Source: Muribaculaceae bacterium
GTDB taxonomy: Bacteria > Bacteroidota > Bacteroidia > Bacteroidales > Muribaculaceae
Direction of reading: 5' to 3'
Assembly: GCA_017478855.1 (NCBI GenBank)
Contig: JAFVCX010000137.1
Coordinates: forward strand, 16,162 to 80,161
DNA length: 64,000 nt
Under the pieces are notes generated by a model that was given only the letters and a program-made list of their open reading frames with translations, had not been told where the DNA came from and did no database searches. Of this stretch, positions 20,128 to 64,000 are shown piece by piece (within the stretch, counting starts at the first letter, position 1; each line of letters begins with the position of its first letter). The translations under genes and the position numbers were made by a program.

Positions 20128-21267
20128 ATGAAACTCAACAATTTGATGAAAAAAAGTGCCATGCTGCTGTGCATGGGTTTGATGATGACCGCTTGTGGAG
20201 GCGATGACCCCGATCCCAGCCCCCTTGACTCGAGCAAGACCGCTATCTTGACGCAATATGTGAACGGCGTAGTGGTACCGACATATAAGTCGCTGGCCGA
20301 CAACGCCATTCAACTGAGTGATATTTGTGCCGACCTGCGCAAAAATCCTTCGCAAGAACTGGTGAACCAAGCGTGCGCCAAGTGGATTGAAGCTCGTAAA
20401 TATTGGGAGTTGAGCGAGGCCTTCCTGTATGGTGCCGCTGCCGACTACAATATTGACCCCCACATCGATTCTTGGCCGCTGCAAAAGAGTAATCTGGATA
20501 ACGTGCTTGCCAACGAGAGCCTGATGGCAGAGCTTGACGAGGATGGTGCCGCTGCCGACGGTTTCAGTACGTTGGGCTATGGTTTGCTGGGCTTCCATGC
20601 GGTGGAATATGTGCTCTTTAGAGATGGCGCACCCCGCAGTGTGGGCGATATCAGCGAGAAGGAACTGATCTATAACGCGGCAGTGGCCGAAGACCTCGCC
20701 AATCAAACCGTGCGACTTGAGGCCGCATGGGCCGGACTTGACAGAGTGACGGCTGCCAAGAGAAAAATGCTGGAGGATGCTGAGTTGGAGCCCACCACCA
20801 ACTATGGCGAGCAGATGATTCAAGCAGGATATGCCGGCAATGTGAACTACAAAACGCAGATCGACGCTATGGTGCAGATCTTGCAAGGCGCGAGCGACAT
20901 CAGTGATGAGGTGGGCAACACGAAGATTACCGACCCCATCAACTCGGGCAATGTGCTGGATGTGGAGTCGTGGTATAGCTGGAACTCTATTGCTGACTTT
21001 ACCGACAACGTGCGCAGTGTGCGCAATGCCTATTATGGCAGCCTCGACGGCAAAGTGAATTCTAACTCGCTGGCCGCCTATTGCGCCCGCAACCACGCAG
21101 CTCTCGACTCCCAAGTGCGCGAAGCGATTGAGCATGCCATCACCACGGTGGCCGCTATGCCCGCCCCCTTCCGCAATCACCTGACTCTTGCCGAGAATCA
21201 GAGTGCCATCGCGGCCTGCAATGAACTCATGGCGGCTCTCGACGATGTGATTGAGGCCATGCAGTGA
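20128..21267 (+). CDS. Imelysin (peptidase M75-like / IrpA-like) lipoprotein
   Basis: Has a lipobox (LMMTAC). Contains the GFHAVEYVLF (HxxE) motif, SWPLQKSNLDNVL and SWYSWNS blocks typical of imelysins. Confidence 0.75.
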   Translation: MKLNNLMKKSAMLLCMGLMMTACGGDDPDPSPLDSSKTAILTQYVNGVVVPTYKSLADNAIQLSDICADLRKNPSQELVNQACAKWIEARKYWELSEAFLYGAAADYNIDPHIDSWPLQKSNLDNVLANESLMAELDEDGAAADGFSTLGYGLLGFHAVEYVLFRDGAPRSVGDISEKELIYNAAVAEDLANQTVRLEAAWAGLDRVTAAKRKMLEDAELEPTTNYGEQMIQAGYAGNVNYKTQIDAMVQILQGASDISDEVGNTKITDPINSGNVLDVESWYSWNSIADFTDNVRSVRNAYYGSLDGKVNSNSLAAYCARNHAALDSQVREAIEHAITTVAAMPAPFRNHLTLAENQSAIAACNELMAALDDVIEAMQ

Positions 21268-21375
21268 CGATGGGTTGATATAGGATATGTTTTTTTGATA
21301 CGCTCTTCTTGATGAGGCACTTCCATCGGTTTGTGATGGGAGTTGCCTCATTAGTGGGCTTAATATGACACAGAA

Positions 21376-22947
21376 ATGAGAAAACAGTTTTTGATATTCG
21401 CAACGCTCCTCACCACAGCGGCCTTCACCGCTTGTGAAGGGCATCATCATGGAGGAGAGGAACCCGACAAAGAACTTCCTGAAGAATATTATAGCGGTGG
21501 CCGGCTGGGCACCACGAGCAACACCACCTCCTCGTGCTTTGAGCAATTCACTCCGGCGGTGGAAGAGGCCGGACTTGTGGCAAACTTTAAGCGTGGCGAG
21601 CGTCGATTTGAAGTGGCACACGCCACCGAGAAAAGCGATGGACTTACCTATTATGGATTGGGCCCCCTCTATAATCGCACGGCTTGCATCGCCTGCCACC
21701 CGGGCTATGGGCATGGCCAGCGCATCACTCGCTATAACAGTGAGGAGTATGGCAATGGTTGCTTGATTATTGTGACCGATAAAGATGGCAATATAGCCTC
21801 ATCGCTGGGCTTGGTGCCGCAAACGGTGGCTTTGCCTCCCTTTAAGCCCATGATTGATGAGCGCAAACTCACCGTGACATGGCTTAATTATACCGACGAG
21901 TGGGGCAACCGTTTTGCCGATGGAGAAACCTATGAGTTGATTTATCCGGAAATAACGATTCCTGAAGACGGTTTCTACTCGCCGCTGGAGGTGAATGGCA
22001 AGCCGCTGGCCCTTGCTGATGCCGTCATCACTTTTGAGTCGACGATTGGCATTTATGGCACGGGACTGCTGGATGCCATCAGCGATGACGACCTGCGGGC
22101 ACAATACTTGGCCGAGGCACCCTATGTGACTCTGAACCCCGCGATTTGGAATGGCGCGACTTGGGCTGCGACCGGTGTGGATGCCGACGGGCATCCCATG
22201 CGGTTTGATTATGCGTGCGATTTCACAAAACTTCAGGCCAACACCAGTTTGTGGGAGGTGACCAATATCATCACCCCCATGTTCCGCTATCTGTACATTC
22301 CCGAAGCCTATGCTCGCACGGCCAGCCAAGATGCCGACGTGCAGGCAAAATTTTATCAGTATTACCCGCAATGGAACAAAACGGGTAATGTGCAAACCGA
22401 TATTTATAACTTCCTCACCAGCAAAGAACAAGAGGTGGAAATGGATGCCAACGCGTGTTATGACCTGATGGTGTGGATGCGTGGCCTCGCCGTGCCGGCG
22501 GCCCGCAACGTGAAAGATGAGGACTTCAAGCGTGGCAAGAAGCTTTTCACTGAAATAGGTTGTGCCACTTGCCATCGTCCGAGCTGGACTACTGGCGACG
22601 ATGTGGTGGTGGATTCCTATGGATTGACCAATGGCGGCCAGAAAGCCATGCCGCGCTATCCTCATCAGAAAATTTGGCCCTACACCGACTTGGTGCAACA
22701 TCGCCTGATGATGAAAAATGACATTCGCACAGGCTGGTGCCGCACCACGCCCCTGTGGGGTAGAGGCTTGAATGAAAAAGCCACCGGTCATGCCGATCGA
22801 CTGCATGACTGCCGTGCCCGCAATGTGATTGAGGCAATTATGTGGCATGGCGCTTCAAACAGCGATGCCCGTGGCTCGGTGGAGAACTTCCGCAAACTGA
22901 ATAAGAGTGACCGCGACGCAGTGGTGAAATTCATTAATTCCATTTGA
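21376..22947 (+). CDS. Di-haem cytochrome c family protein (DUF1111 / thiol oxidoreductase-like) lipoprotein
   Basis: Has a lipobox (AAFTAC). Two CxxCH haem-binding motifs are present (CIACHPGYGHG and CATCHRPSW). Architecture is typical of DUF1111 partners of imelysins. Confidence 0.8.
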   Translation: MRKQFLIFATLLTTAAFTACEGHHHGGEEPDKELPEEYYSGGRLGTTSNTTSSCFEQFTPAVEEAGLVANFKRGERRFEVAHATEKSDGLTYYGLGPLYNRTACIACHPGYGHGQRITRYNSEEYGNGCLIIVTDKDGNIASSLGLVPQTVALPPFKPMIDERKLTVTWLNYTDEWGNRFADGETYELIYPEITIPEDGFYSPLEVNGKPLALADAVITFESTIGIYGTGLLDAISDDDLRAQYLAEAPYVTLNPAIWNGATWAATGVDADGHPMRFDYACDFTKLQANTSLWEVTNIITPMFRYLYIPEAYARTASQDADVQAKFYQYYPQWNKTGNVQTDIYNFLTSKEQEVEMDANACYDLMVWMRGLAVPAARNVKDEDFKRGKKLFTEIGCATCHRPSWTTGDDVVVDSYGLTNGGQKAMPRYPHQKIWPYTDLVQHRLMMKNDIRTGWCRTTPLWGRGLNEKATGHADRLHDCRARNVIEAIMWHGASNSDARGSVENFRKLNKSDRDAVVKFINSI

Positions 22948-22970
22948 CGGGTTGGCCTTGTGGCATAAAG

Positions 22971-25172
22971 ATGAACGCAAAACAAATCTCTTTTGGATTG
23001 TTGCTTGTGATGGTGGTTGTGCTTGCCGTGGCCACCATCATTGAGCACCTATATGGCACGGCAGCCGGCAGTGCCATATATCACTCATGGCCTTTTGTGG
23101 GGCTGTGGATGAGCATTGCCTTGACCGGCTCGTGGGCAATGTGGCGGTCGCGCCTGCATCGCCGGCCACCGGTGCTCATGCTGCATGTGGCTTTGCTGCT
23201 CATCTTGGTGGGGGCTGCTATCACGCATTTCACCAGCGAAAACGGAAAATTGCAGCTCGCAGCGCACGAAAGCGCCCACTCGTTTGTCGATACGTGTGGA
23301 GTGGAACATTTTTTTCCATTTGAGATAACCCTAAGGCGATTTGACATTCAGTATTATGCAGGCACGCCTGCACCGATGGACTTTGTGAGCGAAGTCATCA
23401 TCACTTTTCCCGATGGGAAAAAGATGGAATCGAGTGTGAGAATGAACAAAGTGGTGTCGTGCAGAGGCTATCGTTTCTATCAGTCGGGATTTGATGCCGA
23501 TGGAGGAGGCACCATTCTTGCAGTGGCTCACGATCCGTGGGGCATCGCGGTGACCTATTGCGGTTACGCCTTGTTGTTTTTGGGCATGGTGGCAACTCTG
23601 ATGAGCCGAGGAAGTGTGTTGCGGCGCATGCTGCGCTCGCCGGTTTTGCGGGTGGGAGCAGTGACGCTGGCGGCGGCAGTCGCCTTTCAGAGCTATGCGG
23701 GCGAGCCCCGCACGGTATCGCGCGAGGTGGCGCGCCGCATGGGCGATTTGTATGTGCTGCACAACAATCGCATTTGTCCGCTGCAAACGCAGGCGTGTGA
23801 TTTCATCACAAAATTATATGGAAAATCGTCCTATCGAGAACTCTCAGCCGAGCAGGTACTATCGGGCTGGCTCTTCTATTTTGATGATTGGAAACAAGAA
23901 CCGGTCATTAAAGTGAAAAGTGCGCGTGTGCGCCGGCTGCTGGAGGCCGAGGGACGCTATGTGCCGCTGACGCAGTTTGCCGATTCCCATAACGGATATA
24001 GACTCGACACCTTGTTGCGCAAAGTGTATGCCGGAGAAGAGAAAAGCGATGTGCGAGGCATTTTGGAGGCCGACGAGAAATATGAGCTGGCCATGCTCAC
24101 GGCTTCGGCCCGTAACTTGAAATTATTGCCCCTTCGCTATCATGGCAGCCTTGAATGGTTTGAACCGGCGTCGCTCGACGTGCCGACCGACATTCCCGAC
24201 GAACAATGGGCATTTATGCGCAATGGACTGGGCTATTTGTGTGAGCTGGTGGCGATGGGTGATAACGAGGGTGCTCTGGCGTTTATTGACGCGCTGCGCC
24301 GCTATCAAGAAAGAGAATTGGGCACCGCGGCTCCGAGTGTGGTGGCTTTTCGAGCCGAGAAGGCCTATAATCGGGCAGTGCCCTACGTGTCGCTGGTGGC
24401 CATGCTGCTGGTGACCCTCGGCATTCTGCTTATGGCGGTGACGGCGCGGCAGCTGGCACAAAAAAAGGCATTGCCGCGATGGTGCCTCGGCACCGGTGTG
24501 GTGGTGGCGTGCGCAGTGGCGAGCTATGTGCTGCTGTGCTTTGTCTTGCGGTGGGTGGTGAGCGGCCATGTTCCATTGAGCAATGGGTTTGAAACGATGC
24601 AATTTCTGGCTCTTGTGGCCTTACTGGCAACCGTGGCGCTGATGCGTCGTTGGCCTTCGATGCTGGCTTTTGGTTTGCTGCTCGCGGGGTTGTCGCTCAT
24701 GGTGTCGTGGTTCGGTCAGGCCAATCCGGCCATTACACCGCTCATGCCTGTGCTGCACTCTCCATTGCTGAGCCTGCACGTGGTGCTAATCATGCTGGCC
24801 TATGCGCTATTGGCATTTATGATGCTGAACGGCATCATGGCTTTTTGCGTGAGAAAACAGAGGGCGCAGGTTGCTCGTCTGCAAGTGATGAGCCTCGCCA
24901 TGCTCGAACCGGCTGTGGCGCTGCTGGCGGCGGGCATCTTCATAGGTGCCGTGTGGGCCAACGTGTCGTGGGGCACATATTGGAGCTGGGATCCCAAAGA
25001 AGTGTGGGCTCTCATCACTCTCATCATTTACGCCTTGCCTTTGCACCATGCCCGATGGCTTAGTGGCCATCCGCTGCGCTTTCATGCGTATGCCGTGTTG
25101 GCTTTCACGAGTGTGCTCATCACTTATTTTGGGGTGAATTTTGTGCTTGGCGGCATGCACAGCTATGCCTAA
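22971..25172 (+). CDS. ccsBA: Fused System II cytochrome c biogenesis protein CcsBA (ResB-like + CcsA/ResC-like)
   Basis: The N-terminal half is ResB-like (FDIQYYAGTPAPMDFVSEVII..VRMNKVVSCRGYRFYQSGF). The C-terminal half is multi-TM with the WWD motif WANVSWGTYWSWDPKEVWALI. Confidence 0.85.
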   Translation: MNAKQISFGLLLVMVVVLAVATIIEHLYGTAAGSAIYHSWPFVGLWMSIALTGSWAMWRSRLHRRPPVLMLHVALLLILVGAAITHFTSENGKLQLAAHESAHSFVDTCGVEHFFPFEITLRRFDIQYYAGTPAPMDFVSEVIITFPDGKKMESSVRMNKVVSCRGYRFYQSGFDADGGGTILAVAHDPWGIAVTYCGYALLFLGMVATLMSRGSVLRRMLRSPVLRVGAVTLAAAVAFQSYAGEPRTVSREVARRMGDLYVLHNNRICPLQTQACDFITKLYGKSSYRELSAEQVLSGWLFYFDDWKQEPVIKVKSARVRRLLEAEGRYVPLTQFADSHNGYRLDTLLRKVYAGEEKSDVRGILEADEKYELAMLTASARNLKLLPLRYHGSLEWFEPASLDVPTDIPDEQWAFMRNGLGYLCELVAMGDNEGALAFIDALRRYQERELGTAAPSVVAFRAEKAYNRAVPYVSLVAMLLVTLGILLMAVTARQLAQKKALPRWCLGTGVVVACAVASYVLLCFVLRWVVSGHVPLSNGFETMQFLALVALLATVALMRRWPSMLAFGLLLAGLSLMVSWFGQANPAITPLMPVLHSPLLSLHVVLIMLAYALLAFMMLNGIMAFCVRKQRAQVARLQVMSLAMLEPAVALLAAGIFIGAVWANVSWGTYWSWDPKEVWALITLIIYALPLHHARWLSGHPLRFHAYAVLAFTSVLITYFGVNFVLGGMHSYA

Positions 25173-43702: not shown

Positions 43703-44179
43703 CTATGCTTTGTCAACGAGAAGTGCCACCGCAAGGGCGCTTATGCCCTCTTCGCGGCCGGTGAAGCCCAGTCGCTCGGTGGTGGTGGCCTTGACAGAAA
43801 CTTGGGCCACATCGCAGGTCATGACCTGCGCCAGCGTTTGCTGCATGGCCGGGATGTGCGGGTTGAGCTTGGGACGCTCGGCGCAAATGGTGATATCGCA
43901 ATTACCCAACTCATACCCTTTTTCCCGCACCAGCCGCATGGTTTCTCGCAGCAATAGGCGGCTGTCGATGCCTTTATATTTCGGGTCGGTGTCAGGAAAA
44001 TGATAACCGATGTCGCGCAGGCTGGCAGCTCCCAGCAGGGCGTCGCACAGCGCGTGAATGGCCACATCGGCATCGCTGTGTCCCAGCAGCCCCATGCTGT
44101 GGTCGAGCTTCACCCCGCACAGCCACAAATCGCGTCCGGGCACAAGCCTGTGCACATCATATCCCTGACCTATTCTCAT
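43703..44179 (-). CDS. ispF: 2-C-methyl-D-erythritol 2,4-cyclodiphosphate synthase
   Basis: Contains MRIGQGYDVHRL, GHSDADVAIHALCDALLGA and ATTTERLGFTGR. Confidence 0.92.
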   Translation of the reverse strand: MRIGQGYDVHRLVPGRDLWLCGVKLDHSMGLLGHSDADVAIHALCDALLGAASLRDIGYHFPDTDPKYKGIDSRLLLRETMRLVREKGYELGNCDITICAERPKLNPHIPAMQQTLAQVMTCDVAQVSVKATTTERLGFTGREEGISALAVALLVDKA

Positions 44180-45372
44180 CGGCCAAAGAGGCTCTTAATG
44201 CCGTCCATGTCAAATGAAAGTGTGAATCGCAGCGTTTGGTCGAGTGGCGAGTTTTGAGCTGTGGCAATCATATAGGCCGCATCAAGGCGAATCACATTGA
44301 GCGAGAAACCGGCACCCAGTCCAAAGTACTGGCGGTCGCCGTTATATTTGCTTTCGTAGTAATAGCCGCCGCGCAAGAAGAACTGCTGGTTGTAGGCATA
44401 CTCGGCACCCAAAGAATAGGTGATGCGTTTCAGGGGATCATCGCTGAACGAGTCGAACATACCCGAAATCGACGACTTGTCTTTCCAGTCCTGCTCGGCT
44501 TGCCCATAGGCTTCGGCATTGGGGGTGCCATCTTCATTCAGATAGTCGTCGGCACGGGGCTTGGCCGGCACCATCAGTTTATTGGCGTCGAGCGAGAGGG
44601 TGAGGTTGTGGTAGTCGGCCAACGGGAAGGTAAAGGCCGTGCCCACACGCAGATTGGCCGGCAAGAAAGCCGGATTATTGCCACCGTTATAAGAGATTTT
44701 GCTGCCGATGTTGCTCAGGTTAAATCCCAGCGACCACTGGCACTCGTTGCGACCAATCACGGGGAATGTGGTGTAGTAGCCCGAAATGTCGGCGGCAAAT
44801 GCCGATGCGCCCTTCGACTGGTCATTGTCGTTATAGTCGCCCCCATAACCCAAGTCGCTATAGATGTAGCGCAGAGCCACACCCATCGAGAATTTCTCAC
44901 TCAATTTGCGCGAGTATCCGAGGTCTATCGCCATTTCAAAGGGATTGATGGTGCCCATCACATCGTTGCCCCCCGAAGTCATTTGAATCTCGCCCAGCGA
45001 GAAATAGCGCAACGAGGCACTCACGGCCTGATTGTCGTTGCTGCCAATCTTCATATAGCCGGCCAAGTTGGCCAGATAGATGTCGTTCACAATCTTGCGC
45101 AGCCACGGGGTATAACTCAGCGACACGCCGGCCGCGCTATAGGCGAAGGCATATTTCGACGGATTCCAAAACTGAGAGTTGGCATCGGGGTCGGTGGCCG
45201 CGCCCAAGTCGCCCATCGAGGCGCCTCGCGCATCGGGTATGATGCTCAGTGAGTTCACACCTGTGGTGATGGGGTTAAACTCGGTGTTCTTAATGTCGTC
45301 ATCGGCCCATGCCGCCACACTCATAGTGGCCAGCGCGAGCGCCCATATAAATGATAGAAAGCGATTTTTCAT
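44176..45372 (-). CDS. porV: Type IX secretion system outer-membrane channel/shuttle protein PorV (LptO)-like
   Basis: Has a signal peptide. The block SLSIIPDARGASMGDLGAATDPDANSQFWNPSKYAF matches my recollection of the PorV signature. It is a FadL-like barrel of about 400 aa. Confidence 0.7.
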   Translation of the reverse strand: MKNRFLSFIWALALATMSVAAWADDDIKNTEFNPITTGVNSLSIIPDARGASMGDLGAATDPDANSQFWNPSKYAFAYSAAGVSLSYTPWLRKIVNDIYLANLAGYMKIGSNDNQAVSASLRYFSLGEIQMTSGGNDVMGTINPFEMAIDLGYSRKLSEKFSMGVALRYIYSDLGYGGDYNDNDQSKGASAFAADISGYYTTFPVIGRNECQWSLGFNLSNIGSKISYNGGNNPAFLPANLRVGTAFTFPLADYHNLTLSLDANKLMVPAKPRADDYLNEDGTPNAEAYGQAEQDWKDKSSISGMFDSFSDDPLKRITYSLGAEYAYNQQFFLRGGYYYESKYNGDRQYFGLGAGFSLNVIRLDAAYMIATAQNSPLDQTLRFTLSFDMDGIKSLFGR

Positions 45373-54291: not shown

Positions 54292-54339
54292 CTAAAATCA
54301 AACATCTTATTAAGAATTATTTATCAAAAATTTGTTGCT

Positions 54340-55086
54340 ATGAAGAAACAATTACTCCTTCTCTCGGCCGCTCTGCTGAGCATCAGCGCATGGAGCCAAG
54401 CCACCGTCACTCTGCCCTATGAGGCCAACCTGAACAATGCCGATGAAGCGGCACAATGGACGATCGTCGACGCTAACAACGACGGTAAAACATGGACTTA
54501 TGGCAGCGGTGAATTTGCCTATACATCATTCAACAGCGCCAACGACTATCTGTTTACACCCGCCTTTGCCACTGTGGCAGGCAGCCACGCGCTCACCTAC
54601 ACGGTCAAAGGATATAACGGACGTTACAGCGACGCTTATGAGGTGATACTGGCCAACTCGACCGACGTGGCCAACGCTACTGTGCTGCAAGTGATTGAAA
54701 CCACCGCTCAAAATGGTGTGGGCGCGGCAATGTATAAAGAGAAAACTGTTGATTTTGAAGTGCCCGCGCGCGGCACCTACTACATTGGCTACCACGACGT
54801 GACCACCGACGCTTGGGGACTGTATATCGGTTCGACCAAGATTGTTTCGAATGTGGCCACCGGCCTTCGCAACATTGAAGCTCCTCGCGCAGCCTTCAAC
54901 CGCTCGTCGCAAGCCATTGAGGTTCCCGGTAAAGCTCGCGTCACTGTGGCCACCCTCGGCGGCATCATCGTGGCCGGCTCAACGGTGGAACAAGCCCTTA
55001 GCGTGGCTCATCTTCCCAATGGCGCTTATGTGGCACTGGTGAAGCGTGCCGACGGTGGCGTGGACCGCATTAAGTTCATCAAGTAA
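54340..55086 (+). CDS. Small T9SS cargo: cleaved-adhesin / choice-of-anchor-J-like beta-sandwich domain + T9SS C-terminal sorting domain
   Basis: Has a signal peptide (MKKQLLLLSAALLSISAWSQ) and the QWTIVDANNDGKTWTYG motif. The C-terminus VTVATLGGIIVAGS..LSVAHLPNGAYVALVKRADGGVDRIKFIK is CTD-like. Confidence 0.7.
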   Translation: MKKQLLLLSAALLSISAWSQATVTLPYEANLNNADEAAQWTIVDANNDGKTWTYGSGEFAYTSFNSANDYLFTPAFATVAGSHALTYTVKGYNGRYSDAYEVILANSTDVANATVLQVIETTAQNGVGAAMYKEKTVDFEVPARGTYYIGYHDVTTDAWGLYIGSTKIVSNVATGLRNIEAPRAAFNRSSQAIEVPGKARVTVATLGGIIVAGSTVEQALSVAHLPNGAYVALVKRADGGVDRIKFIK

Positions 55087-55109: not shown

Positions 55110-57380
55110 ATGAAGAAAACTTTGTTAACCTCATGCGCCATCGTTGTGGCAATCCTTGCTACCGCGGGATTGCCACAAATGGTGGTACGCAACAAGCAGC
55201 AGGCACCCCAAGTGCCACAACCGGAGGTGACGCTTGCGAGCAAAACGCATCGTGCCGCGCCGGCGCACGTCAGGCTCACTGCCGACCAACCGTTGCAAGC
55301 CGCGTTCAGCGTGCAAGGAGCCGAATCGCAGAAAGCCGTTTGGCAAGTAAACTTCGACGAAGGTGCCGCGGGCTGGACTTTGGGACGCGATGCCAACGAT
55401 TACTTTGGCTGGGAACTCAAAAAATCGAGCGGCACCCAAGCCTTTGGCCTCATCGACGAGAACGACGTGCAGTCGCTCTTCATAGAAGGGCCTTATCAAA
55501 TCTACAGAAGAAGCATTGCCCGCGCCACCGGTCCCGCCATTGACGTGCCTCAAAATGGCGTGCTGCATGCCTACATCGGTTATAGCCAGAACATGAACAC
55601 CTATGCTGTGCTCTCGATTGAAGCATCGACCGACGGTTTTGAGAACAGTGTGGAATTGTGGAACAGCACTCTTGAAACGGGCGAAACGGCATGGCGATGG
55701 CACAAGATTGAGGTGGGCCTCAATGATTACGCCGGCAAGAAAGTGGCTTTTCGCTTCACTTACGGACCGGGCACCAGCGATAATGTGTTCCGCACGGGTG
55801 GCTATATGGCCGATTATTACATTGACGGCCTGCAGGTGACCGGTGTGAGCAGTGTGGATCACATTGATGTAGCCACGGGTGAGCCGGTGAACTTTGTGGA
55901 TCTCTCTACCGGCGATGTGACACAATGGGAATGGCAGTTTGAGGGCGGCACACCCGCAACCTCGACCGAGGCCGCGCCCACCGTCGTCTATAAAAATGAT
56001 GGAGCCTACAGCGTGAGCCTGACTGTTACCGACGCACAGGGCACGACAAGCAGCGTGACGCGTGAGCGGTTTGTGAACGTGACCGGCACGGCCCCTGTGG
56101 CTCGCATCATGCCTCCGGCCACCTTCCGCTACGACGACACCCATCTGCCCATGGTGTGTCCCCTCGTGCCTGTGCAGTATCGTGATGCATCGAGTAGTTT
56201 CCCCACTCAGTGGCAATGGAATTTCACCGGCACCACGCCGGCCGCATCCGCACAAGAGAATCCTCTTGTAGCCTATGATTTCATGCACGAGCAAAGCGTG
56301 ACCCTGCAAGTGGCCAACGAACATGGTTCGAGCAGTGACGCACTGGCGGTATCGGCCGAATATGAAGGTTACATCAGCAATTTGCTCAGCAGCGACTATC
56401 CCATCACCCGCAGCCTCGATGGCGAGGGCACCTTCCCGGGCAGCAATCGCATGCGCATTAATGCCTATGCCGAGCGTTTCTCGGCTCCGTCGCGCCCCAT
56501 CTTGGTGTATGGCGCGCTGGTGTTTTTTGAAACCGCCACGGCCGAGGCTCTTACCGACCAGATAGCCAATGTGGGTGTGCATCTGTGCAAGAGCGAAGAC
56601 GGCAAACCCGGCAAGCAGCTCGACTCGATGTGGTGGCGCGTGTTTGAGCTGGCCACCAGCACCAGCACCACCCTGCGTGGCACGCTGTTTGAGTTCACTC
56701 CGCAAGTGGTGGATGAGGAATTCTTTATTATGGTGGACGGTATTCCGGAGTGGAACGACTCGTGCAATGTGTCGTTTGCCATGGCCAGCCTGCGCGACCA
56801 CGACAACACGGCTTACATCAAGTTGCGCGACCAGTGGCGACCCGTGACCGGCTTCTTCGACCGCGACAAGAGCCAAACCTCGTTCTACATTATGCCGCTC
56901 ATCGCGCACTCGGTCATCACATTCTTGCCCACCAGTACACAAGAGGTGCGTGTGCCCGCACAAGGAGGAAGCATAGACCAACAATTATTTGCCCTCTTTG
57001 GCTATAATACGCCCGAAGTTGACGCCGACTGGTGTCGCATCACCAGCACGCCCAATGAGCTGACGCTCGACACACTGAAAATAGAGTGTGACGCGCTGCC
57101 GGCAGGCACTTCCAGCCGTGTGGCCACCATTACCGTGACCGACCGCATCAATGCCTCGACGGCCACGCTGCGCATCGTGCAGAGTGCCGGTCTTGCGGGC
57201 GACGTGAATGGCGATGGTGAGGTGGATGTGAACGATGTGAACATTCTCATCAACATCATTTTGGGCACCGATGACGCTGAAAAATATGATGGCCGTGCCG
57301 ACGTGAACGGTAGTGGCGGCATCGATGTGAGTGACGTAAATGCTCTGCTCAACATTATCTTGGGCAAGGCCGACAATTAG
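55110..57380 (+). CDS. Secreted multidomain protein: N-terminal adhesin/MAM-like domain, PKD-like repeats, BACON-like domain, C-terminal dockerin-like module
   Basis: The PKD-like block is VNFVDLSTGDVTQWEWQFEGGTPATS..YSVSLTVTDAQGTTSS. The BACON-like block is DADWCRITSTPNELTLDTLKIECDALPAGTSSRVATITVTD. The dockerin-like module is at the end. Only 23 nt separate it from the upstream gene. Confidence 0.75.
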   Translation: MKKTLLTSCAIVVAILATAGLPQMVVRNKQQAPQVPQPEVTLASKTHRAAPAHVRLTADQPLQAAFSVQGAESQKAVWQVNFDEGAAGWTLGRDANDYFGWELKKSSGTQAFGLIDENDVQSLFIEGPYQIYRRSIARATGPAIDVPQNGVLHAYIGYSQNMNTYAVLSIEASTDGFENSVELWNSTLETGETAWRWHKIEVGLNDYAGKKVAFRFTYGPGTSDNVFRTGGYMADYYIDGLQVTGVSSVDHIDVATGEPVNFVDLSTGDVTQWEWQFEGGTPATSTEAAPTVVYKNDGAYSVSLTVTDAQGTTSSVTRERFVNVTGTAPVARIMPPATFRYDDTHLPMVCPLVPVQYRDASSSFPTQWQWNFTGTTPAASAQENPLVAYDFMHEQSVTLQVANEHGSSSDALAVSAEYEGYISNLLSSDYPITRSLDGEGTFPGSNRMRINAYAERFSAPSRPILVYGALVFFETATAEALTDQIANVGVHLCKSEDGKPGKQLDSMWWRVFELATSTSTTLRGTLFEFTPQVVDEEFFIMVDGIPEWNDSCNVSFAMASLRDHDNTAYIKLRDQWRPVTGFFDRDKSQTSFYIMPLIAHSVITFLPTSTQEVRVPAQGGSIDQQLFALFGYNTPEVDADWCRITSTPNELTLDTLKIECDALPAGTSSRVATITVTDRINASTATLRIVQSAGLAGDVNGDGEVDVNDVNILINIILGTDDAEKYDGRADVNGSGGIDVSDVNALLNIILGKADN
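57198..57377 (+). other. Type I dockerin-like module
   Basis: Sequence is GDVNGDGEVDVNDVNILINIILGTDDAEKYDGRADVNGSGGIDVSDVNALLNIILGKADN. Confidence 0.75.
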
Positions 57381-57510: not shown

Positions 57511-59379
57511 TCACTTGCCGAGGACGAGGTTGATGAGCGTGTTCACATCGTTCACATCCACCTCACCGTTGCCGTCCACGTTGGCGCGTCCGCCATAGTT
57601 GCTGGCCTCGTTTTTGCCAAGTACGATATTAATAATGGTGTTCACGTCGTTCACATCCACCTCACCATCGCCGGTCACGTCGCCCACTTTAGGCTTGTTG
57701 CCGCTTGTGTTTTTCACTTGGAACGGCAATTTGAAGGCCGACAGGAAGATGGCCCACTCGCGCGTTTCGATGGAAGCGTCACTATTGATGGGTTTAAGCA
57801 AGAATGTGCCCACGCTGCGTCCGCGCGACATCGTGTAGATTACATCGCCTTGCGCGATGAATTCTTGCGAGGTGGACTGGCCGCCGCTACTGATGAGGCT
57901 GCAAAAGTCGGTGCTCTCAAGCGTCATGGCATCATGCTCCACCAGAATCACGCCATAGCTCTCATAGGTGGACATATTGGCCGCAAAGGTGTAGCCATAG
58001 GTATAGAATTTTGTGCCTTCTTCGTTCTCAAAGCCGCCGAAGTAGCCGGTGATGCCATTAAGTGACTCCACGACACCGCTCTTGCTGAAGGTGGCGTTTA
58101 GCCATTGGCCTGTGGCGGCATCGCACTTAATCACATAGCCCTCCCGCATGTTTCCTGTGACAGTGGCAATCGTTTGTGAGCTGTCGGCACTGCTCAGCAT
58201 GCCATTGCCCATGCCTGTGAGCCACATCACGTCGCCCACCACGTTCACATGGTTGTTTTGCCACACACAATCACGACCTTGCACTTTGTCGCCCTTGAAA
58301 AGCTGCACCCATTTGACGTTGAGCTCGGTGTCGATGCGAGCCGTCAGCATGCTGGATTGACGATTGGTGAGAGTGATGTCGAGGCCTCCCAAATGGATGA
58401 CACTTTCCTCGTCCGTGGCACCTTTAACCATACCGTTCAAGACGAAGTCGTCGCCCGCCTTTGCCAATACGAAAGAACTTTCGCAATAGGCCGTGCCGGT
58501 GGTGGTGAGCATGCGCACGAGTTGGCCTTGGGCATTGAATTTTGCGACAAACATATCGCCCCTCGATGTTTGCGAGTCGCCGTCCCATCCCTCGGTGTTG
58601 TGCGGAGTGAGGGTGATCGCAGTGCCATCGGCCTGCGTCAGAGTGATGGGATTTACATAGCGCCCCGACACATAGAAGTTACCCTCGCTGTCGCCTTCCA
58701 TGCCGCTGATGTAGAAAGCTATGCTGGTGAAATCGGCATTGCCGGACTTGGCGTTGGGTTGTGGTGCGTGGCTCACTTCGAGCAGGCGAGTCCACTCGAT
58801 GGCGCCATTGGCACTCACCTTCATGAGCAGACCTTGAACCCACCGCTTGTCGTCTTGGTCGTTGAGCTTCCAGTCGATGACCGTTTCGTGGCCGGTGGCA
58901 TCAATGAAGCGCAGCGGCTCGGTGCGCATGTTGTCGGTGTGACGAACGGCCACCGACACATACACGCCTCCATCGGGAGCAGGAACCACACCGCCATTGT
59001 TCGACATGGCTTCGCCGCTGGTGGAGTAGACCGTCCACTTGAATGAGCCGTCGAGGCCGGTCTTGAGCAAGTTGAAGTTGTTGTTGTAGGAGGCTCCCTC
59101 GTAGGGTGCTCCCTCGGCCACTTTCACACCATCGTAGTAGATTGACTTGGTGGGGTCGGAATATTCTTTTGGAAAGCCCGAATTTCCGGAACCGATGGTG
59201 CTGCCGGTGGTGGACAGGTAATACAAGCTGCCGTCGGCCACGGTCATGGTGATGCCCATGTCGGGGGGAGCCGCATCAAGGAGTTTGCACCACTGGGTGG
59301 TGGTGCTGCTCACGCTTTGTGCCTGCGCGATGATGGCTGCGAGGCCAAGAAGTGACAAAATGATGGTCTTTTTCATCAT
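57511..59379 (-). CDS. Secreted SBBP-type beta-propeller repeat protein with a C-terminal dockerin-like module
   Basis: Start at MMKKTIILSLLGLAAIIAQAQ. Contains repeated GN.YV.G / D.FVAKF..G...W blocks. The dockerin-like module is at the C-terminus. Confidence 0.7.
   Translation of the reverse strand: MMKKTIILSLLGLAAIIAQAQSVSSTTTQWCKLLDAAPPDMGITMTVADGSLYYLSTTGSTIGSGNSGFPKEYSDPTKSIYYDGVKVAEGAPYEGASYNNNFNLLKTGLDGSFKWTVYSTSGEAMSNNGGVVPAPDGGVYVSVAVRHTDNMRTEPLRFIDATGHETVIDWKLNDQDDKRWVQGLLMKVSANGAIEWTRLLEVSHAPQPNAKSGNADFTSIAFYISGMEGDSEGNFYVSGRYVNPITLTQADGTAITLTPHNTEGWDGDSQTSRGDMFVAKFNAQGQLVRMLTTTGTAYCESSFVLAKAGDDFVLNGMVKGATDEESVIHLGGLDITLTNRQSSMLTARIDTELNVKWVQLFKGDKVQGRDCVWQNNHVNVVGDVMWLTGMGNGMLSSADSSQTIATVTGNMREGYVIKCDAATGQWLNATFSKSGVVESLNGITGYFGGFENEEGTKFYTYGYTFAANMSTYESYGVILVEHDAMTLESTDFCSLISSGGQSTSQEFIAQGDVIYTMSRGRSVGTFLLKPINSDASIETREWAIFLSAFKLPFQVKNTSGNKPKVGDVTGDGEVDVNDVNTIINIVLGKNEASNYGGRANVDGNGEVDVNDVNTLINLVLGK
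57514..57684 (-). other. Type I dockerin-like module
   Basis: Sequence is GDVTGDGEVDVNDVNTIINIVLGKNEASNYGGRANVDGNGEVDVNDVNTLINLVLGK. Confidence 0.75.
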
Positions 59380-59460
59380 GAAAATGTTTTTTCTGCGTTT
59401 TGAGGTCGCAAAGGTACTGAAAAATGGCCGGTTGGCCAAATGTTGCGCCCGTCCGATGGA

Positions 59461-61563
59461 CTATGGGTACAACGGAATGATGAGGCGGCAAGTGATGTTG
59501 CGCCCCGGATTGTAGATACCCTGATGCCCTGTGACCACATTGACGTCGGTGTACTTCAGCCGGCTCAAATGGCTTTGGTAGGCTTTGTTGAGCAGGTTGT
59601 CGGCCACAAGGTAGACTTCGGCCACCTTGCGTTTGCCGTGGTGAATCCCCGTGCCGCAAGCAAGATTGAGCAGCGCGTAGGCCGGCGTGGACGTTTCGGT
59701 GGCATCGGCACGGTAATAGTGGTGCTGGGCGAAATTGCACTCCACTCCGACCGACACGTAAGTTTCCTTTAATGAGGCAATTTTATGGGCAATGTCGTAA
59801 CGCAACGTGGAGTTCCAACGAGGTGCCGGAGTGAAAGGCAGATACTTGGTGTCGCGCGGCTGGTGAAGCTGCACGGCATTCACCATGCTCAAAGTGTTCT
59901 CAAAGTGAACGTTGGTGACGGGATGCAGGTCTACGCCGGCTTCAAAACCTATGAGCCGGGCTTCACCCTGACGATATTGGTAGGTGAGATAACCTTCTTC
60001 CATCACGAGAGGAATGCGGGCGGCAAAAACGTAGTGGTTGATCCGGTTGGCAAACAATGCCAGCTGAGCCGAAATGAATTTGGATGAAAAATCCACCCCC
60101 AAGTCGGCCTGAAGACTATATTCGGCTTTGAGCTGCTGATTGCCCAGCTCATAGCGCACCGTGCCCTCGTGCACGCCGTTGGAGGCCAGCTCGCTCACGT
60201 TGGGCGCGCGAAATCCGCGAGCCACATTCAGGCGAATGTTGGTGGTGGGCGACACGTTCCACACGGCTCCCAAACCTGCCGTCACGGCGTTGAAGTTACG
60301 GGCGAAGTCGTTGAAGCGCATGTCCCCGTCGTCCATCAGGGCTTCGCTGTGCAAGCGCCTGTGGTCGAAACGCAGTCCACCATTGACCGTCACATTGCCC
60401 ATCAGCTTGCTCACGGCGGCATAAAGGCCCACATCGTTAAGACGATAGGCGGGAATGAGAAATTCTTCGCCCTCATTGCACGAACGCTGCCACATGCCGC
60501 CCAAACCGGCGGTAACTTTCCAATCGCCGGGCAGGTTGTCTGTGAGGTAACGAATGTCGTAGGTGAGGGTGTGTAGCTTGAAGTACAGGCCATATTCATG
60601 AGCCGACTCTTCATATTCTTGCCGGCGGTTTTGCTGATATCCCACAGTGGTTTTGAGTGAGCCAAGCCCGAGCTGCCAAGTGTTGTCGAGCACAGCTTTG
60701 TAATGCTTCACTCGCTGGAAGGGCAGCGTCTTGCTATAGGAGGTGTGGTGTGGCGTGCTCCACTCCAGCTGCCCGGTGGTGGCATCACGTTCGCCCTCGG
60801 CAATGCTGGGCGTGAGGTGCAAGGCACTCAACGTGAGGTGGGTGGTAACCGACTGTGAGTGGTGTCCCAGCATGAGGCGGCCGGCTTGTTCGTGAAATTG
60901 AGTGCCCGGAACATAACCGTCGTGTGGCGCGCGGTAGGCATGCGCCATTTTGCCGCTATAACGGGCATCCCACACAAAACCATGCTGATTGCCCGCACCA
61001 TTGAGCGAATAATCCCACAGACCGCTGTTGCTCTGATAGGCGGTGCTGACCTGGCCGCGAACTTCTCCCTCGGCCGGAATGGGATTGCTGTGCATGATCA
61101 GCACGCCGGCCATCGCGTCCGAGCCATAAAGCAGGCTGGTGGGGCCTTTGATGACTTCGACCGAGCCAACATTGTGGGCATCAATTTCAATGCCGTGTTC
61201 ATCGCCCCATTGCTGGCCTTCCTGCCTCACTCCGTCGGCCACCACCACAATGCGATTGTAGCCCAGCCCGCGAATGATGGGTTTTGAAATGCCGCTGCCG
61301 GTGGTGATTTGGCTCACGCCCGGCAAATGCGCCACGGCATCAATCAGGTTGGGAGCCGAGCTGGCTTTCAAGTCGCGAGCCGTCACAAAAGAGATGGGTG
61401 AAGTGGAGTTTTTGAGTTTGGTTTCGCCTGTGAGGCCGGTAACGACCAGCTCATTGAGCCGCACATGGTTCATATAATGGTCGGCAGTGTCGGCCACGCT
61501 TTGTGTTCTCGCCGGCAAAGCGCAAAGCCATAGCGAGAGCACAATGAAATATAGTTGTTTCAT
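59461..61563 (-). CDS. TonB-dependent receptor
   Basis: Has a signal peptide. The plug block is IIRGLGYNRIVVVADGVRQEGQQWGDEHGIEID..VEVIKGPTSLLYGSDAMAGV. It has a long barrel. Confidence 0.85.
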   Translation of the reverse strand: MKQLYFIVLSLWLCALPARTQSVADTADHYMNHVRLNELVVTGLTGETKLKNSTSPISFVTARDLKASSAPNLIDAVAHLPGVSQITTGSGISKPIIRGLGYNRIVVVADGVRQEGQQWGDEHGIEIDAHNVGSVEVIKGPTSLLYGSDAMAGVLIMHSNPIPAEGEVRGQVSTAYQSNSGLWDYSLNGAGNQHGFVWDARYSGKMAHAYRAPHDGYVPGTQFHEQAGRLMLGHHSQSVTTHLTLSALHLTPSIAEGERDATTGQLEWSTPHHTSYSKTLPFQRVKHYKAVLDNTWQLGLGSLKTTVGYQQNRRQEYEESAHEYGLYFKLHTLTYDIRYLTDNLPGDWKVTAGLGGMWQRSCNEGEEFLIPAYRLNDVGLYAAVSKLMGNVTVNGGLRFDHRRLHSEALMDDGDMRFNDFARNFNAVTAGLGAVWNVSPTTNIRLNVARGFRAPNVSELASNGVHEGTVRYELGNQQLKAEYSLQADLGVDFSSKFISAQLALFANRINHYVFAARIPLVMEEGYLTYQYRQGEARLIGFEAGVDLHPVTNVHFENTLSMVNAVQLHQPRDTKYLPFTPAPRWNSTLRYDIAHKIASLKETYVSVGVECNFAQHHYYRADATETSTPAYALLNLACGTGIHHGKRKVAEVYLVADNLLNKAYQSHLSRLKYTDVNVVTGHQGIYNPGRNITCRLIIPLYP

Positions 61564-61622
61564 TGATAACTGATTTTAATTGTGAATAGAATGTGTTTGG
61601 GTTAAGTTTTTTCGCAATCAAA

Positions 61623-61964
61623 TCAGCTTTGAGGCGGGCCGCGCGTGGCGATGGCATGCAGATGGCAAGAGCTGCCGCTTGCATGATAAGGTGTGTATAA
61701 AGATAAAATTTGTGGAGCGCATGCAGCGAGCTTAAAGCCCTCGGCGGCCACATATTGGTTGCCGGCGAAACTGCACAGCACACAGTCGTCAAGATGAACC
61801 TGCAAAGTGGTGATGTGGCCCGAATGGCAGGTGTGGGTCACGCAGTCGTTGCAATGCACGTTTGTGACCTCGACTATGGGGTGAACGTGCAGTGCCGACA
61901 GACCTATCATCGGCACAAATACCGACAACAGAACCCATGCGGCTATTTTTTCGAGTCTAACCAT
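61623..61964 (-). CDS. Small membrane-anchored Cys/His-rich protein (putative metal-binding partner of the downstream TonB receptor)
   Basis: Has an N-terminal anchor (IAAWVLLSVFVPMIGLSAL) followed by HVHPIVEVTNVHCNDCVTHTCHSGHITTLQVHLDDCVLCSF. The promoter box at 61984..61991 supports the start. Confidence 0.5.
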   Translation of the reverse strand: MVRLEKIAAWVLLSVFVPMIGLSALHVHPIVEVTNVHCNDCVTHTCHSGHITTLQVHLDDCVLCSFAGNQYVAAEGFKLAACAPQILSLYTPYHASGSSCHLHAIATRGPPQS

Positions 61965-61983
61965 TTTCTTCTCTCTGACGGCA

Positions 61984-61991
61984 CAAAGTTA
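61984..61991 (-). promoter_or_regulatory. Candidate -7 promoter box (TAACTTTG on the minus strand)
   Basis: The plus strand reads CAAAGTTA, 20 nt upstream of the ATG at 61964. Confidence 0.45.
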
Positions 61992-62065
61992 CGGAAAAAA
62001 ACGAGAGCAGGACAAAATGAATCCATTCATTTTTAATGCCGAACGCAAGTGTAACTTCGTGACTT

Positions 62066-62090
62066 TTGCCGCAACGTTGCGGCAATTTTT
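62066..62090. terminator. Perfect 20-nt palindrome TTGCCGCAACGTTGCGGCAA followed by T5
   Basis: Read directly from the sequence. It lies between the 62175 gene stop and the 61964 gene promoter. Confidence 0.45.
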
Positions 62091-62112
62091 GGCTGCGTGC
62101 GACTGAAGTGTC

Positions 62113-62146
62113 TAAAAAAGGCTCGCCGCACGAGCGAGCCTTTTTA
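62113..62146 (-). terminator. Rho-independent terminator after the 62175..64000 gene
   Basis: Stem AAAAAGGCTCGC / GCGAGCCTTTTT with a 7-nt loop. It has A/T runs on both sides. Confidence 0.7.
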
Positions 62147-62174
62147 TCTTCTGATTAATGGATGCCCTTGGGAT

Positions 62175-64000
62175 TTAGCGCACCACCACTTTCTTGCCAC
62201 CGGCGATGTAGAGGCCTGCGGGCAGACCGGCCACGCTGGTGTCGCCGGTTTTCACAAGACGTCCGTCGATGGTGTAGACGTTGTTGTTCACGCGTTTCAC
62301 ATCGGCATTGATGGTTGTGATGGCGGTGGCGTTGTCCACGGTCACCTTCACATGGGCTTTCACATTAGAGTTGCTGGCCGAAGTGGCTGTGATGATGGCC
62401 ACATTCTCACCGGCATTAACCTTGCGGATGCGTGCGGGAGCGGCTTGCGAGTCGGCAGCGGTCACCACGCCGTTTTCGTCCACAGTGGCCACGCTCTCGT
62501 CGCTCGACGACCAAATCACGCGACTGTTCACTGTGTTTTCTGGCAGCAGAGTGGCTATCAAGCTCAGCGTTTGGCCTTTGCCTATGGTGGCTTCCTCATA
62601 GTTGAGGGTCAGGCTTTGCACGGCACCCACCGGCAGCTGGAAGGCCGACAGACGACCCAAGAAGGCCGAACTGGTGAACGACAGGTCGCTGTTGGTATAG
62701 GTGGCCGTCTTGTTTCCATTGGGCAGGCGATCATAGATGTAGAGCTTGTTGCCAATGGGCTGAATGCCATAGCCGTCGGCAGTCTTGTCGATGAGTACCA
62801 CACCGTCGGCGGGAGTGGTGGTAAAGGCTTCTGGGTCAATCTTGTGGATGGCTGTACCCATGTGCACGTTGCCCAAACTGGCCATCGGGTTCATCGAACC
62901 CAGACCGCGTTCCACGGCATAGAGATAACCGTCAGTACCCTCGAACGCGCCGAAGAAACCATGTTGTCCATCTTTGTAGGTCAGGCAGTTGACAGCCTCG
63001 CCGGTAGCGGCGTTCACTTGCACCATCCACGGGTCGCGTACGTTAACGGTAGCAAATGTCTTGTCACCAATGGCCATGCCCATCTTGGCTGTTCCCATCA
63101 GGTACAGCTTGTTGTCGATCACGCTTAGGGTGGGCATTTGCAAGGCACTGCCGCTCATGGTGCTCTGGTAGAGTTGGAACCAGTTCACGTTCAGGTCGGT
63201 ATCAAACTTAGCCGCGAACAGACTGTTGTAGGCGTTGGTCGGGGTCACGCTCTTGCCGTCCAGCGTGATTTCGGTGTTGGCCTTACCCTCAATCAAGCCA
63301 AAGAGATAGAGGTCGTTGCCCACGACTTTCAGGGTGCGTGCATTTTCGCCGGTGGCCTCGCCGCCGGTGACAAGGTGCTTGACATAGTTACCCTCACTGT
63401 CGAGCTTGATGATATACATATTACCAGCCGGCTTCTGCGAATCGCCGATCCAGTCGCTGACGTTGTGCGGCGTGATGGTTACATCGCCAATGGTAATGTC
63501 GGCCACCATGCGGCCGGCCACATAGATGTTGCCTGCGTTATCCACCTCCAAGCCGTAGGCATAGATGCCCTGGCCTATGTTGGTCGTTCCCTGAGTCCAA
63601 CCGGCGTAGATGGTCTTGTCGGCCACGGCGTTGATGGTGAACTGTTTGAGCCACTCAATTTTGCCATTGGCGTCAATCTTGATGACGGCCGATTCGTAGT
63701 GGCGAGCACCATTGAGTTCCATGGGCATGGCATATTCTGTACCCTGTGCATCCACGATGACAACGCCGTTGTCGGTGTAGCCCTCGCTGGGACGCATGTT
63801 GATATAGGTCACCGCGCCGCCGTCGGGCGTGCCCACGATGCAGGCACCCTCACTATTGTCAATCTCGCCATACTTTGACATGATTTTCCATGCCAGAGTG
63901 CCGTCGGGGTTGACCTTGGTGATGCACAAGTCCAAATTGTTTGAATTGCCTCCGTATGGAGTTCCCGTACCCAAGATGTCATCGCCAAATAAGAGGTTTT
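62175..64000 (-). CDS. SBBP-type beta-propeller repeat protein with a Big_2 Ig-like domain and T9SS C-terminal sorting domain; 5' end outside the window
   Basis: The frame stays open to position 64000, and the track start is only an internal TTG. The Big_2-like block is ATIGKGQTLSLIATLLPENTVNSRVIWSSSDESVATVDENGVVTA. The CTD-like end is NNNVYTIDGRLVKTGDTSVAGLPAGLYIAGGKKVVVR. Confidence 0.7.
   Translation of the reverse strand, partial: NLLFGDDILGTGTPYGGNSNNLDLCITKVNPDGTLAWKIMSKYGEIDNSEGACIVGTPDGGAVTYINMRPSEGYTDNGVVIVDAQGTEYAMPMELNGARHYESAVIKIDANGKIEWLKQFTINAVADKTIYAGWTQGTTNIGQGIYAYGLEVDNAGNIYVAGRMVADITIGDVTITPHNVSDWIGDSQKPAGNMYIIKLDSEGNYVKHLVTGGEATGENARTLKVVGNDLYLFGLIEGKANTEITLDGKSVTPTNAYNSLFAAKFDTDLNVNWFQLYQSTMSGSALQMPTLSVIDNKLYLMGTAKMGMAIGDKTFATVNVRDPWMVQVNAATGEAVNCLTYKDGQHGFFGAFEGTDGYLYAVERGLGSMNPMASLGNVHMGTAIHKIDPEAFTTTPADGVVLIDKTADGYGIQPIGNKLYIYDRLPNGNKTATYTNSDLSFTSSAFLGRLSAFQLPVGAVQSLTLNYEEATIGKGQTLSLIATLLPENTVNSRVIWSSSDESVATVDENGVVTAADSQAAPARIRKVNAGENVAIITATSASNSNVKAHVKVTVDNATAITTINADVKRVNNNVYTIDGRLVKTGDTSVAGLPAGLYIAGGKKVVVR

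Follow-up and report, generated by a model that had tools for sequence, protein, structure and literature searches.

In the NCBIfam naming scheme, 'choice-of-anchor' denotes one passenger domain that is found with differing C-terminal sorting or anchoring modules. Two C-terminal modules, the C-terminal domain (CTD) of type IX secretion system (T9SS) cargo and the type I dockerin, are combined with the same passenger in the DNA analysed here, a 64,000-nucleotide stretch of a Muribaculaceae bacterium genome (GCA_017478855.1, contig JAFVCX010000137.1, positions 16,162 to 80,161; hereafter the window) carrying two related β-propeller genes, A and B. Since at least 2016, surveys of Bacteroidota have recorded dockerins in the absence of cohesins, without assigning them a function (PMC6487960, PMC9763041, PMC10266427). 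The transfer of dockerins from Firmicutes to Bacteroidetes was inferred in the rumen (Bensoussan et al. 2016, PMC6487960), and dockerins without cohesins were also recorded in surveys of metagenome-assembled genomes (MAGs) and single amplified genomes (SAGs) (PMC9763041, PMC10266427). The literature we found on Bacteroidota dockerins consisted of surveys listing occurrences, none with a mechanism, and no paper tied dockerins to the T9SS or to the surface enzymes of polysaccharide utilisation loci (PULs) in Bacteroidales. An initial annotation of the window, made from its sequence, had remarked that no characterised cohesin-dockerin system is known to be coupled to the T9SS, and none turned up in this literature.

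Paralogous propellers with different C-terminal modules

Gene A (57511..59379, minus strand) encodes a 622-aa protein composed of a signal peptide, a β-propeller and a C-terminal type I dockerin, as read from its open reading frame (ORF) and translation, Pfam matches, an AlphaFold2 (AF2) model and Foldseek. Its N-terminus carries a signal peptidase I (SPI)-type signal peptide (MMKKTIILSLLGLAAIIAQA|QS). Gene B (62175..>64000, minus strand), recognised by BLASTP against A and by its Big_2 match, encodes a paralogous β-propeller followed by a Big_2 domain and a short T9SS-type CTD; 607 aa are visible, the N-terminus lying beyond the window end (base 64000). ORF translation showed that the initial annotation had the coordinates and frames of both genes right. 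BLASTP of A against B returned one continuous alignment of 476 columns (30% identity, 47% positives, E 5e-54) that passed through all the blocks quoted in that annotation, and similarity this far above chance makes A and B paralogues. The alignment stops at LSAFKLP in A and LSAFQLP in B, with divergence beginning right after the common F-x-LP motif.

The passenger of A (57712..59313, minus strand) is closed by an F-x-LPF junction motif that is conserved throughout the propeller family. Its AF2 model was all-β (predicted TM-score 0.86, mean predicted local distance difference test score (pLDDT) 81), and a Foldseek search with this model gave the CylK propeller (E 2e-10) and eight-bladed PQQ dehydrogenases as the top PDB matches. 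Weak matches to SBBP and LipL53-type repeats were also obtained. At the level of a structural model, this confirmed the β-propeller body that the initial annotation had proposed. We found 48 homologues of A, most of which end in a dockerin and bear the name 'dockerin type I repeat-containing protein [Muribaculaceae bacterium]'; the nearest ones shared 57-60% identity with A. The closest relative of B, P0054 (683 aa, with an SPI signal peptide), was 66% identical across the aligned passenger columns.

A dockerin was taken to consist of two tandem ~22-residue segments, each with a Ca-binding loop (D/N-x-D/N-x-D/N-G-x-x-D-x-x-D) followed by a helix. The dockerin module of A (residues 566-619; 57523..57684, minus strand) contains the repeats DVTGDGEVDVNDVNTIINIVLGK and NVDGNGEVDVNDVNTLINLVLGK, both with a complete Ca-loop signature (DVTGDGEVDVNDV..INIVLGK and NVDGNGEVDVNDV..INLVLGK). 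The tail matched Dockerin_1 (PF00404, cutoff 22.9 bits) at 26.0 bits within the whole protein and at 31.4 bits in a scan of the isolated tail, and the last 57 residues aligned full-length with the solved dockerins 4UYP_B, 4UYQ_B, 1OHZ_B and 8X39. By these sequence measures the tail of A is a genuine type I dockerin, as the initial annotation had called it. A homologue search with the bare 60-aa dockerin as the query returned only 11 candidates and was uninformative.

The tail of B has two parts. The core of its Ig-like Big_2 domain, also predicted in the initial annotation, spans residues 459-514 (62457..62624, minus strand; PF02368, E 3.7e-10, 40.1 bits, cutoff 22.8). It is followed by a C-terminal tail (62178..62363, minus strand; ..NNVYTIDGRLVKTGDTSVAGLPAGLYIAGGKKVVVR), with the protein terminating in ..GGKKVVVR*. 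The initial annotation had described this tail as typical of T9SS CTDs. Its CTD nature was borne out by a family-tail hidden Markov model (HMM), which was built from 121 long CTD tails of the propeller family with B-type tails left out and which matched B residues 546-607 at E 8.6e-11, the top match among 551 window ORF segments. The word 'typical' was too strong, however, because the curated models miss it: the 53-aa tail matched neither TIGR04183 nor PF18962, even when scanned alone at E<=10. Among relatives, TIGR04183 was matched at E<=0.01 by 28/82 propeller-family representatives, and the isolated tail of P0043 (..LPAGIYIANGQKVVVR) clears that model (24.9 bits, cutoff 23). AF2 modelled four confident β-strands in the last 36 residues of B (pLDDT 92-95). 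In a Foldseek search of 350,542 chains with this model, the CTDs of NucA (8GLK_D), RgpB (7PQ4) and RemA (8GL6_D) ranked 2, 3 and 8, at E 1.3-1.8, all above 1, and this structural likeness is suggestive only. Together, the family-tail HMM, the TIGR04183 matches of P0043 and other family members and the CTD-like model point to a divergent short CTD of T9SS type-A-like character.

On orthologous propellers, tails of the G-x-Y-I..K-V-V-V-R type alternate with another kind of short tail (..V-R-Y-Y-N-x-x-G..G-x-N-I-V-V-x-x-Y-S-D-G-S..K-x-x-K). Carriers of the latter include P0048, P0052, P0059 and P0063, and it occurs in loci L005, L008-L013, L015 and L016. The isolated tail of P0048, the one example scanned, matched no curated T9SS model.

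An exhaustive profile search for the propeller family returned 225 cluster representatives at E<1e-30. The genome loci with relatives belong to MAGs of Bacteroidales from the rumen and gut that carry the labels Muribaculaceae, Sodaliphilus, 'Prevotellaceae', Barnesiella and Tannerella. When the tails of the 212 full-length members were sorted by motif, 148 were CTD-type, 52 were dockerins and 12 were unclassified; among the CTD-type tails, 131 had the ..G-x-Y-I..K-x-x-V-K/R pattern and 17 the ..Y-S-D-G-S..K pattern. In a neighbour-joining tree computed from the passenger only, the root was in the CTD state and nearly all dockerin forms fell in one large clade, the others being isolated leaves. 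CTD copies neighbouring dockerin genes fell in the part of the tree adjoining the dockerin clade. Parsimony on this tree gave four CTD-to-dockerin changes, but four independent swaps were rejected, only two being robust by pairwise scores. The dockerin-tailed P0078 scored nearer to CTD-type copies (294 vs 202 bits), which indicates at least two independent dockerin replacements, and replacements always fell at the same F-x-LP(F) junction. The propeller family was thus ancestrally T9SS cargo, with a Sec signal, a propeller and a CTD; in Muribaculaceae-like lineages the gene was duplicated and the CTD of one copy was replaced by a type I dockerin after F-x-LPF. The central observation of the initial annotation, one passenger with two alternative terminal modules, stood, the modules being swapped at one junction.

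The conserved gene pair and its transporter locus

The two copies were repeatedly found as neighbours. The dockerin-type propeller adjoined a same-strand CTD-type paralogue in 13/13 loci (L001-L013), with the CTD copy first in L001-L007 and the dockerin copy first in L008-L013, and the partner CTD-type copies in these loci had SPI-type signals at their N-termini. Same-strand pairing was also seen at L022 (P0078), at L024 (P0055), where the genes form a CTD-dockerin-CTD triple, and at L028. In L028, the locus most closely related to the window, 105 bp separate P0054, the orthologue of B, from P0003, the orthologue of A. Counting the window, where the pair is split by two genes, same-strand CTD and dockerin neighbours were present in 17/18 loci.

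This arrangement extends to a transporter locus. Of the 15 dockerin-type loci that had sufficient upstream sequence, 14, L028 among them, had the propeller genes divergent from a four-gene unit. This unit encodes a ~930-aa TonB-dependent receptor (CarboxypepD_reg + Plug), a DUF4876 protein, a DUF6850 protein and an M16 peptidase, and it is highly conserved in L001-L029 (e.g. L011 1111..9846; L028 1370..9812). It also stood beside CTD-only single copies, being divergent in the Barnesiella-like L017-L019 and downstream on the same strand in L015, which shows that the association predates the dockerin swap. The CTD copy and the dockerin copy are kept side by side on one strand, normally divergent from a TonB-dependent transporter locus. 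The window's own canonical unit would lie just past base 64000.

With its receptor and M16 protease, the unit is reminiscent of the Fus system for ferredoxin import. DUF4876 proteins have been predicted to be lipoproteins that act as lids on non-SusC TonB-dependent transporters (bioRxiv 10.1101/2023.03.17.533168). Iron limitation induces DUF4876/receptor loci in Porphyromonas gingivalis (PG1019-22, ~20-214x) and Bacteroides thetaiotaomicron (BT3631-33, 112-128x), where they are among the most strongly iron-starvation-induced genes of both species (PMC10434189). From this context we infer that the propellers may be extracytoplasmic accessory, ligand-capturing proteins of a TonB-dependent uptake system, which by analogy with these species is probably related to metal or iron. 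The transporter context, which the initial annotation missed, probably defines what the propellers do.

Dockerins on other proteins of the window and of related genomes

A degenerate DNA pattern for the dockerin loop occurred at 6 sites in the window, compared with 0.03 expected, and these sites were confined to three genes: A, gene C and a C10 peptidase gene. Pfam assigned a dockerin to each of them, in agreement with the three dockerins counted in the initial annotation. The C10 peptidase (7923..10307, plus strand) combines an Inhibitor_I69 propeptide, Peptidase_C10, an Ig/CARDB-like region and a dockerin (10134..10295, plus strand; PF00404, 34.0 bits, cutoff as above). Gene C (55110..57380, plus strand), convergent with A, encodes a signal peptide, a PKD domain (PKD_4, E 1.5e-13), a BACON-like domain (BACON at 23 bits, slightly below its cutoff) and a C-terminal dockerin (residues 696-750; 57195..57359, plus strand; Dockerin_1, 32.6 bits). 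On the same strand, 23 bp upstream of C, gene D (54337..55086, plus strand) encodes a choice-of-anchor J domain (NF038128, 44.5 bits, cutoff 30) with a CTD-like tail, giving another CTD-beside-dockerin arrangement in which the passengers are unrelated. The tail of D matched TIGR04183 at E 0.15 and the family-tail HMM at E 1e-4, the second-best match in the window; judged by its sequence, D is probably T9SS cargo. The idea that D is a paralogue of the C N-terminus, forming a second CTD/dockerin pair, was rejected because BLASTP of D against C was empty.

Tagging with dockerins was not confined to the window. The C10-dockerin architecture had >5000 database relatives at E<1e-10; among the top 120 clusters, PF00404 was listed in 109 and nearly all had a dockerin-like end. 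In L011, a 21-kb stretch of a single MAG contig holds five dockerin ORFs (15963..21564 and 215..949), including GH13+CBM26+dockerin and CBM26+dockerin proteins. SusG in Bacteroides is a lipoprotein. L026 (1..7085) contains a Sus-like starch locus in which the genes for SusD, SusE and SusF are followed, at the SusG position, by a GH13+dockerin gene whose product has an SPI signal and no cysteine or lipobox, and the next gene encodes a GH53 galactanase with its dockerin N-terminal, straight after the signal peptide. All the dockerin ORFs with an intact N-terminus that we inspected had SPI-like signals and no convincing lipobox.

The dockerins themselves resembled each other within loci. Those on unrelated passengers of one locus were 40-81% identical (58-81% in the window, L007 and most L011 pairs, and lower in L003), compared with a mean of 40% for dockerins on propeller orthologues from different loci. 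The dockerin of A was closest to that of the window's own C10 protease (66%), and no orthologue exceeded 56%. Dockerin sequence types therefore appear to be lineage-specific, and likeness within a locus above that between orthologues of different loci suggests a shared partner that coevolves within the genome. The three dockerin modules of the window shared ~70-80% DNA identity on inspection of the alignment, with a mean column identity of 84%; recent gene conversion among them was rejected on the former value.

Several neighbouring genes bear on export and uptake. The porV-like gene of the initial annotation (44176..45372, minus strand) encodes PorV, the outer-membrane shuttle of the T9SS (NF033710, E 1.1e-140, 469 bits, cutoff 250), and its presence shows that a T9SS exists in the organism. 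The gene immediately following the C10-dockerin gene encodes a 659-aa Porin_10 outer-membrane protein (10397..12376, plus strand; PF14121, E 4e-179). Porin_10 was rejected as a dedicated exporter of the C10-dockerin protein, as the adjacency is not kept in L026 or L027. Between B and A stands a gene for a 700-aa TonB-dependent receptor (59461..61563, minus strand; Pfam Plug + TonB_dep_Rec), the best matches of which were heme/hemoglobin and ZnuD-type receptors, all sub-threshold (TIGR01785, 169 bits, cutoff 317). Upstream of this receptor, the ORF list includes a putatively coding, Cys/His-rich ORF of 113 aa (61623..61964, minus strand; ..HVHPIVEVTNVHCNDCVTHTCHSGH..), for which neither Pfam nor NCBIfam gave a match. 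This two-gene unit (59461..61964) looks like an insertion, given the gap of only 105 bp within the orthologous pair of L028.

Elsewhere in the window, a DHOR (di-haem peroxidase-like) gene is followed by one for a fused ResB/CcsA cytochrome c assembly protein (21376..25172, plus strand). The 5' end of the DHOR ORF overlaps a minus-strand ORF of 531 aa (20119..21714) without a family match.

Possible roles of the dockerin and comparison with known systems

On balance, we lean towards the dockerin being a tag for addressing or assembly that acts non-covalently and Ca-dependently to keep its passenger on a common receptor of the cell envelope, replacing a CTD in the propellers and a lipid anchor in the SusG slot. 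The CTD copy would be exported via the T9SS and then attached or released at the surface, and the dockerin would tether its passenger to the envelope receptor in place of a CTD or lipid anchor, acting as a general tag that would also serve the C10 proteases, the PKD/BACON protein, the GH13 amylases and GH53. A dockerin-based surface route beside the T9SS, as proposed in the initial annotation, is an attractive conjecture. A far-reaching form of the idea, which we hold to be speculative and improbable, is genome-wide, dockerin-based display and assembly on the Gram-negative surface of Muribaculaceae-like Bacteroidales, with dozens of CTD-less, non-lipidated proteins (propellers, C10 proteases, SusG-like amylases) carried through their lineage-specific dockerins on a non-canonical cohesin-like receptor that is itself T9SS cargo or a lipoprotein; co-export with such a receptor would be the first hitch-hiker route through the T9SS.

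Several points weigh against the tethering model. The cohesin family PF00963 had no match among the ~55 window ORFs scanned, nor among the ORFs scanned or pre-annotated of L011, L021, L022, L024 and L026-L028. We know of no route by which a CTD-less non-lipoprotein crosses the Bacteroidota outer membrane, and the dockerin copy may be periplasmic. The similarity of dockerins within a genome could stem from older recombination instead of a shared receptor. The passenger tree was built by neighbour-joining without bootstrap or other support values, and the pairwise scores of P0055 and P0072 were ambiguous, leaving two of the four inferred swaps not robust. The canonical four-gene unit would lie outside the window, and the link to iron or metal is by analogy with other species. 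Finally, in L021, the sole exception to the pairing, the dockerin copy P0072 is without a CTD neighbour; this means that the CTD paralogue is not an obligatory partner of the dockerin copy, and that idea was rejected.

The first alternative takes up the periplasmic location. Here the dockerin copy would receive or process ligand caught by the surface CTD propeller, beside the M16 peptidase, and its dockerin would be a Ca-dependent tether or stabiliser. In TonB-dependent protein import, of which Fus is an example, peptidases of the M16 class work periplasmically, and the presence of one in the locus, the conservation of the pair beside the transporter, the SPI signal with neither CTD nor lipobox on the dockerin copies and the lack of a known export route for such proteins all fit this arrangement. 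We nevertheless regard it as unlikely, as the same tag is found on cargo that is typically extracellular or surface-located (GH13+CBM26, the SusG-slot GH13, GH53, the prodomain-bearing C10 protease and the PKD/BACON protein), and C10 proteases of other Bacteroidales (Porphyromonas, Prevotella) are T9SS CTD cargo. Moreover, the dockerin has at least twice taken the place of a secretion or anchor signal, each time at the same junction, which suggests that the two modules have equivalent roles.

A further possibility is piggy-back export, in which the dockerin would bind, within the periplasm, a protein that has a CTD (the neighbouring paralogue or a general T9SS cargo protein of cohesin-like type), and the folded complex would leave through the T9SS. 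The T9SS transports folded proteins, PorV is present, and both the adjacency of CTD and dockerin copies in 17/18 loci and the position of the CTD-like gene D 23 bp upstream of the dockerin gene C point towards such a mechanism. However, the lone dockerin copy of L021 and the C10-, GH13- and GH53-dockerin genes have no adjacent CTD paralogue; L021 and the C10 and GH13 genes that stand unpaired exclude a role of the neighbouring paralogue as general carrier. Big_2, the only extra domain of B, is missing from many partner copies (e.g. P0058, L001) and was rejected as the dockerin receptor for that reason, and no case of hitch-hiking via the T9SS is known. Piggy-back export is accordingly a doubtful prospect, and we rank its likelihood as low.

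The dockerins might also target something outside the producer cell, such as the cohesins of cohabiting Firmicutes (on cellulosomal or amylosomal scaffoldins) or a polysaccharide or host ligand, with the tagged proteins being released. The GH13+CBM26+dockerin architectures do resemble amylosome enzymes of Ruminococcus bromii. Such a target would also agree with the inferred dockerin transfer from Firmicutes to Bacteroidetes in the rumen (PMC6487960) and with the surveys that recorded dockerins but no cohesins (PMC9763041, PMC10266427). Against this, the lineage-specific dockerin types on unrelated proteins of one genome fit a coevolving partner within that genome, and an export route would be needed here as well; we rate an outside target as very unlikely. 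Least credible of all, the dockerin-like module could be a new class of T9SS C-terminal sorting signal, given that it replaces the CTD at the same position, was always the last module where seen on a propeller or C10 protein and occurs in an organism with a T9SS, but as a divergent CTD it was rejected, because it is by sequence a canonical helical EF-hand-type dockerin rather than a β-sandwich, the T9SS models all miss the dockerin tails, the family CTD profile matched them at E 0.087 and 1.9, and the GH53 protein of L026 carries its dockerin N-terminally.

Whichever role applies, the locus gives a concrete handle on the long-listed dockerins of Bacteroidota: a dockerin stands exactly at the position of the T9SS secretion/anchor signal of the sister copy, and the pair lies within a TonB-dependent uptake locus. 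In this lineage, a SusG-like amylase likewise has the tag in place of its lipid anchor. In the mouse gut, Muribaculaceae are a dominant family. Should the dockerin serve as a surface address, it would be a third way of arming the Muribaculaceae surface besides lipoproteins and the T9SS, and a new means of crossing the outer membrane would be needed; if the dockerin proteins are periplasmic, the role of dockerins would be redefined.

Compared with described systems, the dockerin of A has the same 57-aa duplicated Ca-loop and helix as the type I dockerins of cellulosomes and amylosomes (4UYP, Acetivibrio cellulolyticus ScaB; 1OHZ, Clostridium thermocellum Xyn10B), and its two repeats are nearly identical, as in dockerins with a dual binding mode. 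The setting differs from cellulosomes in that the host is a Gram-negative, T9SS-bearing member of the Bacteroidales with an outer membrane to cross and no cohesin in the ORFs scanned, and in that the cargo consists of β-propellers, C10 proteases and PUL enzymes instead of cellulosomal enzymes. B and most of its family share with T9SS type A cargo (RgpB, NucA, RemA) a passenger followed by an extreme C-terminal β-strand tail with a G-x-Y...K-x-x-x-K/R ending, a Sec signal in most members and, as for known cargo, the presence of PorV, whereas the tail of B differs in being only ~53 aa long and in falling below both curated models. Accessory propellers such as BtuG and XusB likewise stand beside a TonB-dependent receptor; here, the receptor is accompanied by a DUF4876 lid, and comparable loci are induced by iron starvation. 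BtuG and XusB are lipoproteins, whereas the propellers described here use a T9SS CTD or a dockerin, and no link to either protein, in sequence or by Foldseek, appeared among the top 50 PDB matches of the A passenger.

The non-cellulosomal dockerins of Prevotella, Bacteroides and Alistipes (PMC6487960) and of cockroach SAGs (PMC10266427) show the same cohesin-less occurrence in Bacteroidota, although those surveys are lists of occurrence, without CTD/dockerin pairing, transporter or PUL context or genome-specific types. The nearest conceptual match is found in the choice-of-anchor families (e.g. NF038128), which embody the same concept and to which gene D itself belongs as a choice-of-anchor J protein. 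The present case differs from them in that the choice is between a T9SS CTD and a dockerin, is made within one genome and has been fixed as an adjacent pair of paralogues. Both kinds of module were already known, as was the notion that a single passenger can be paired with different anchors. The new elements are the conservation of CTD and dockerin copies as a pair, the transporter locus beside them and the wide use of dockerin tags in a Gram-negative lineage that has a T9SS.

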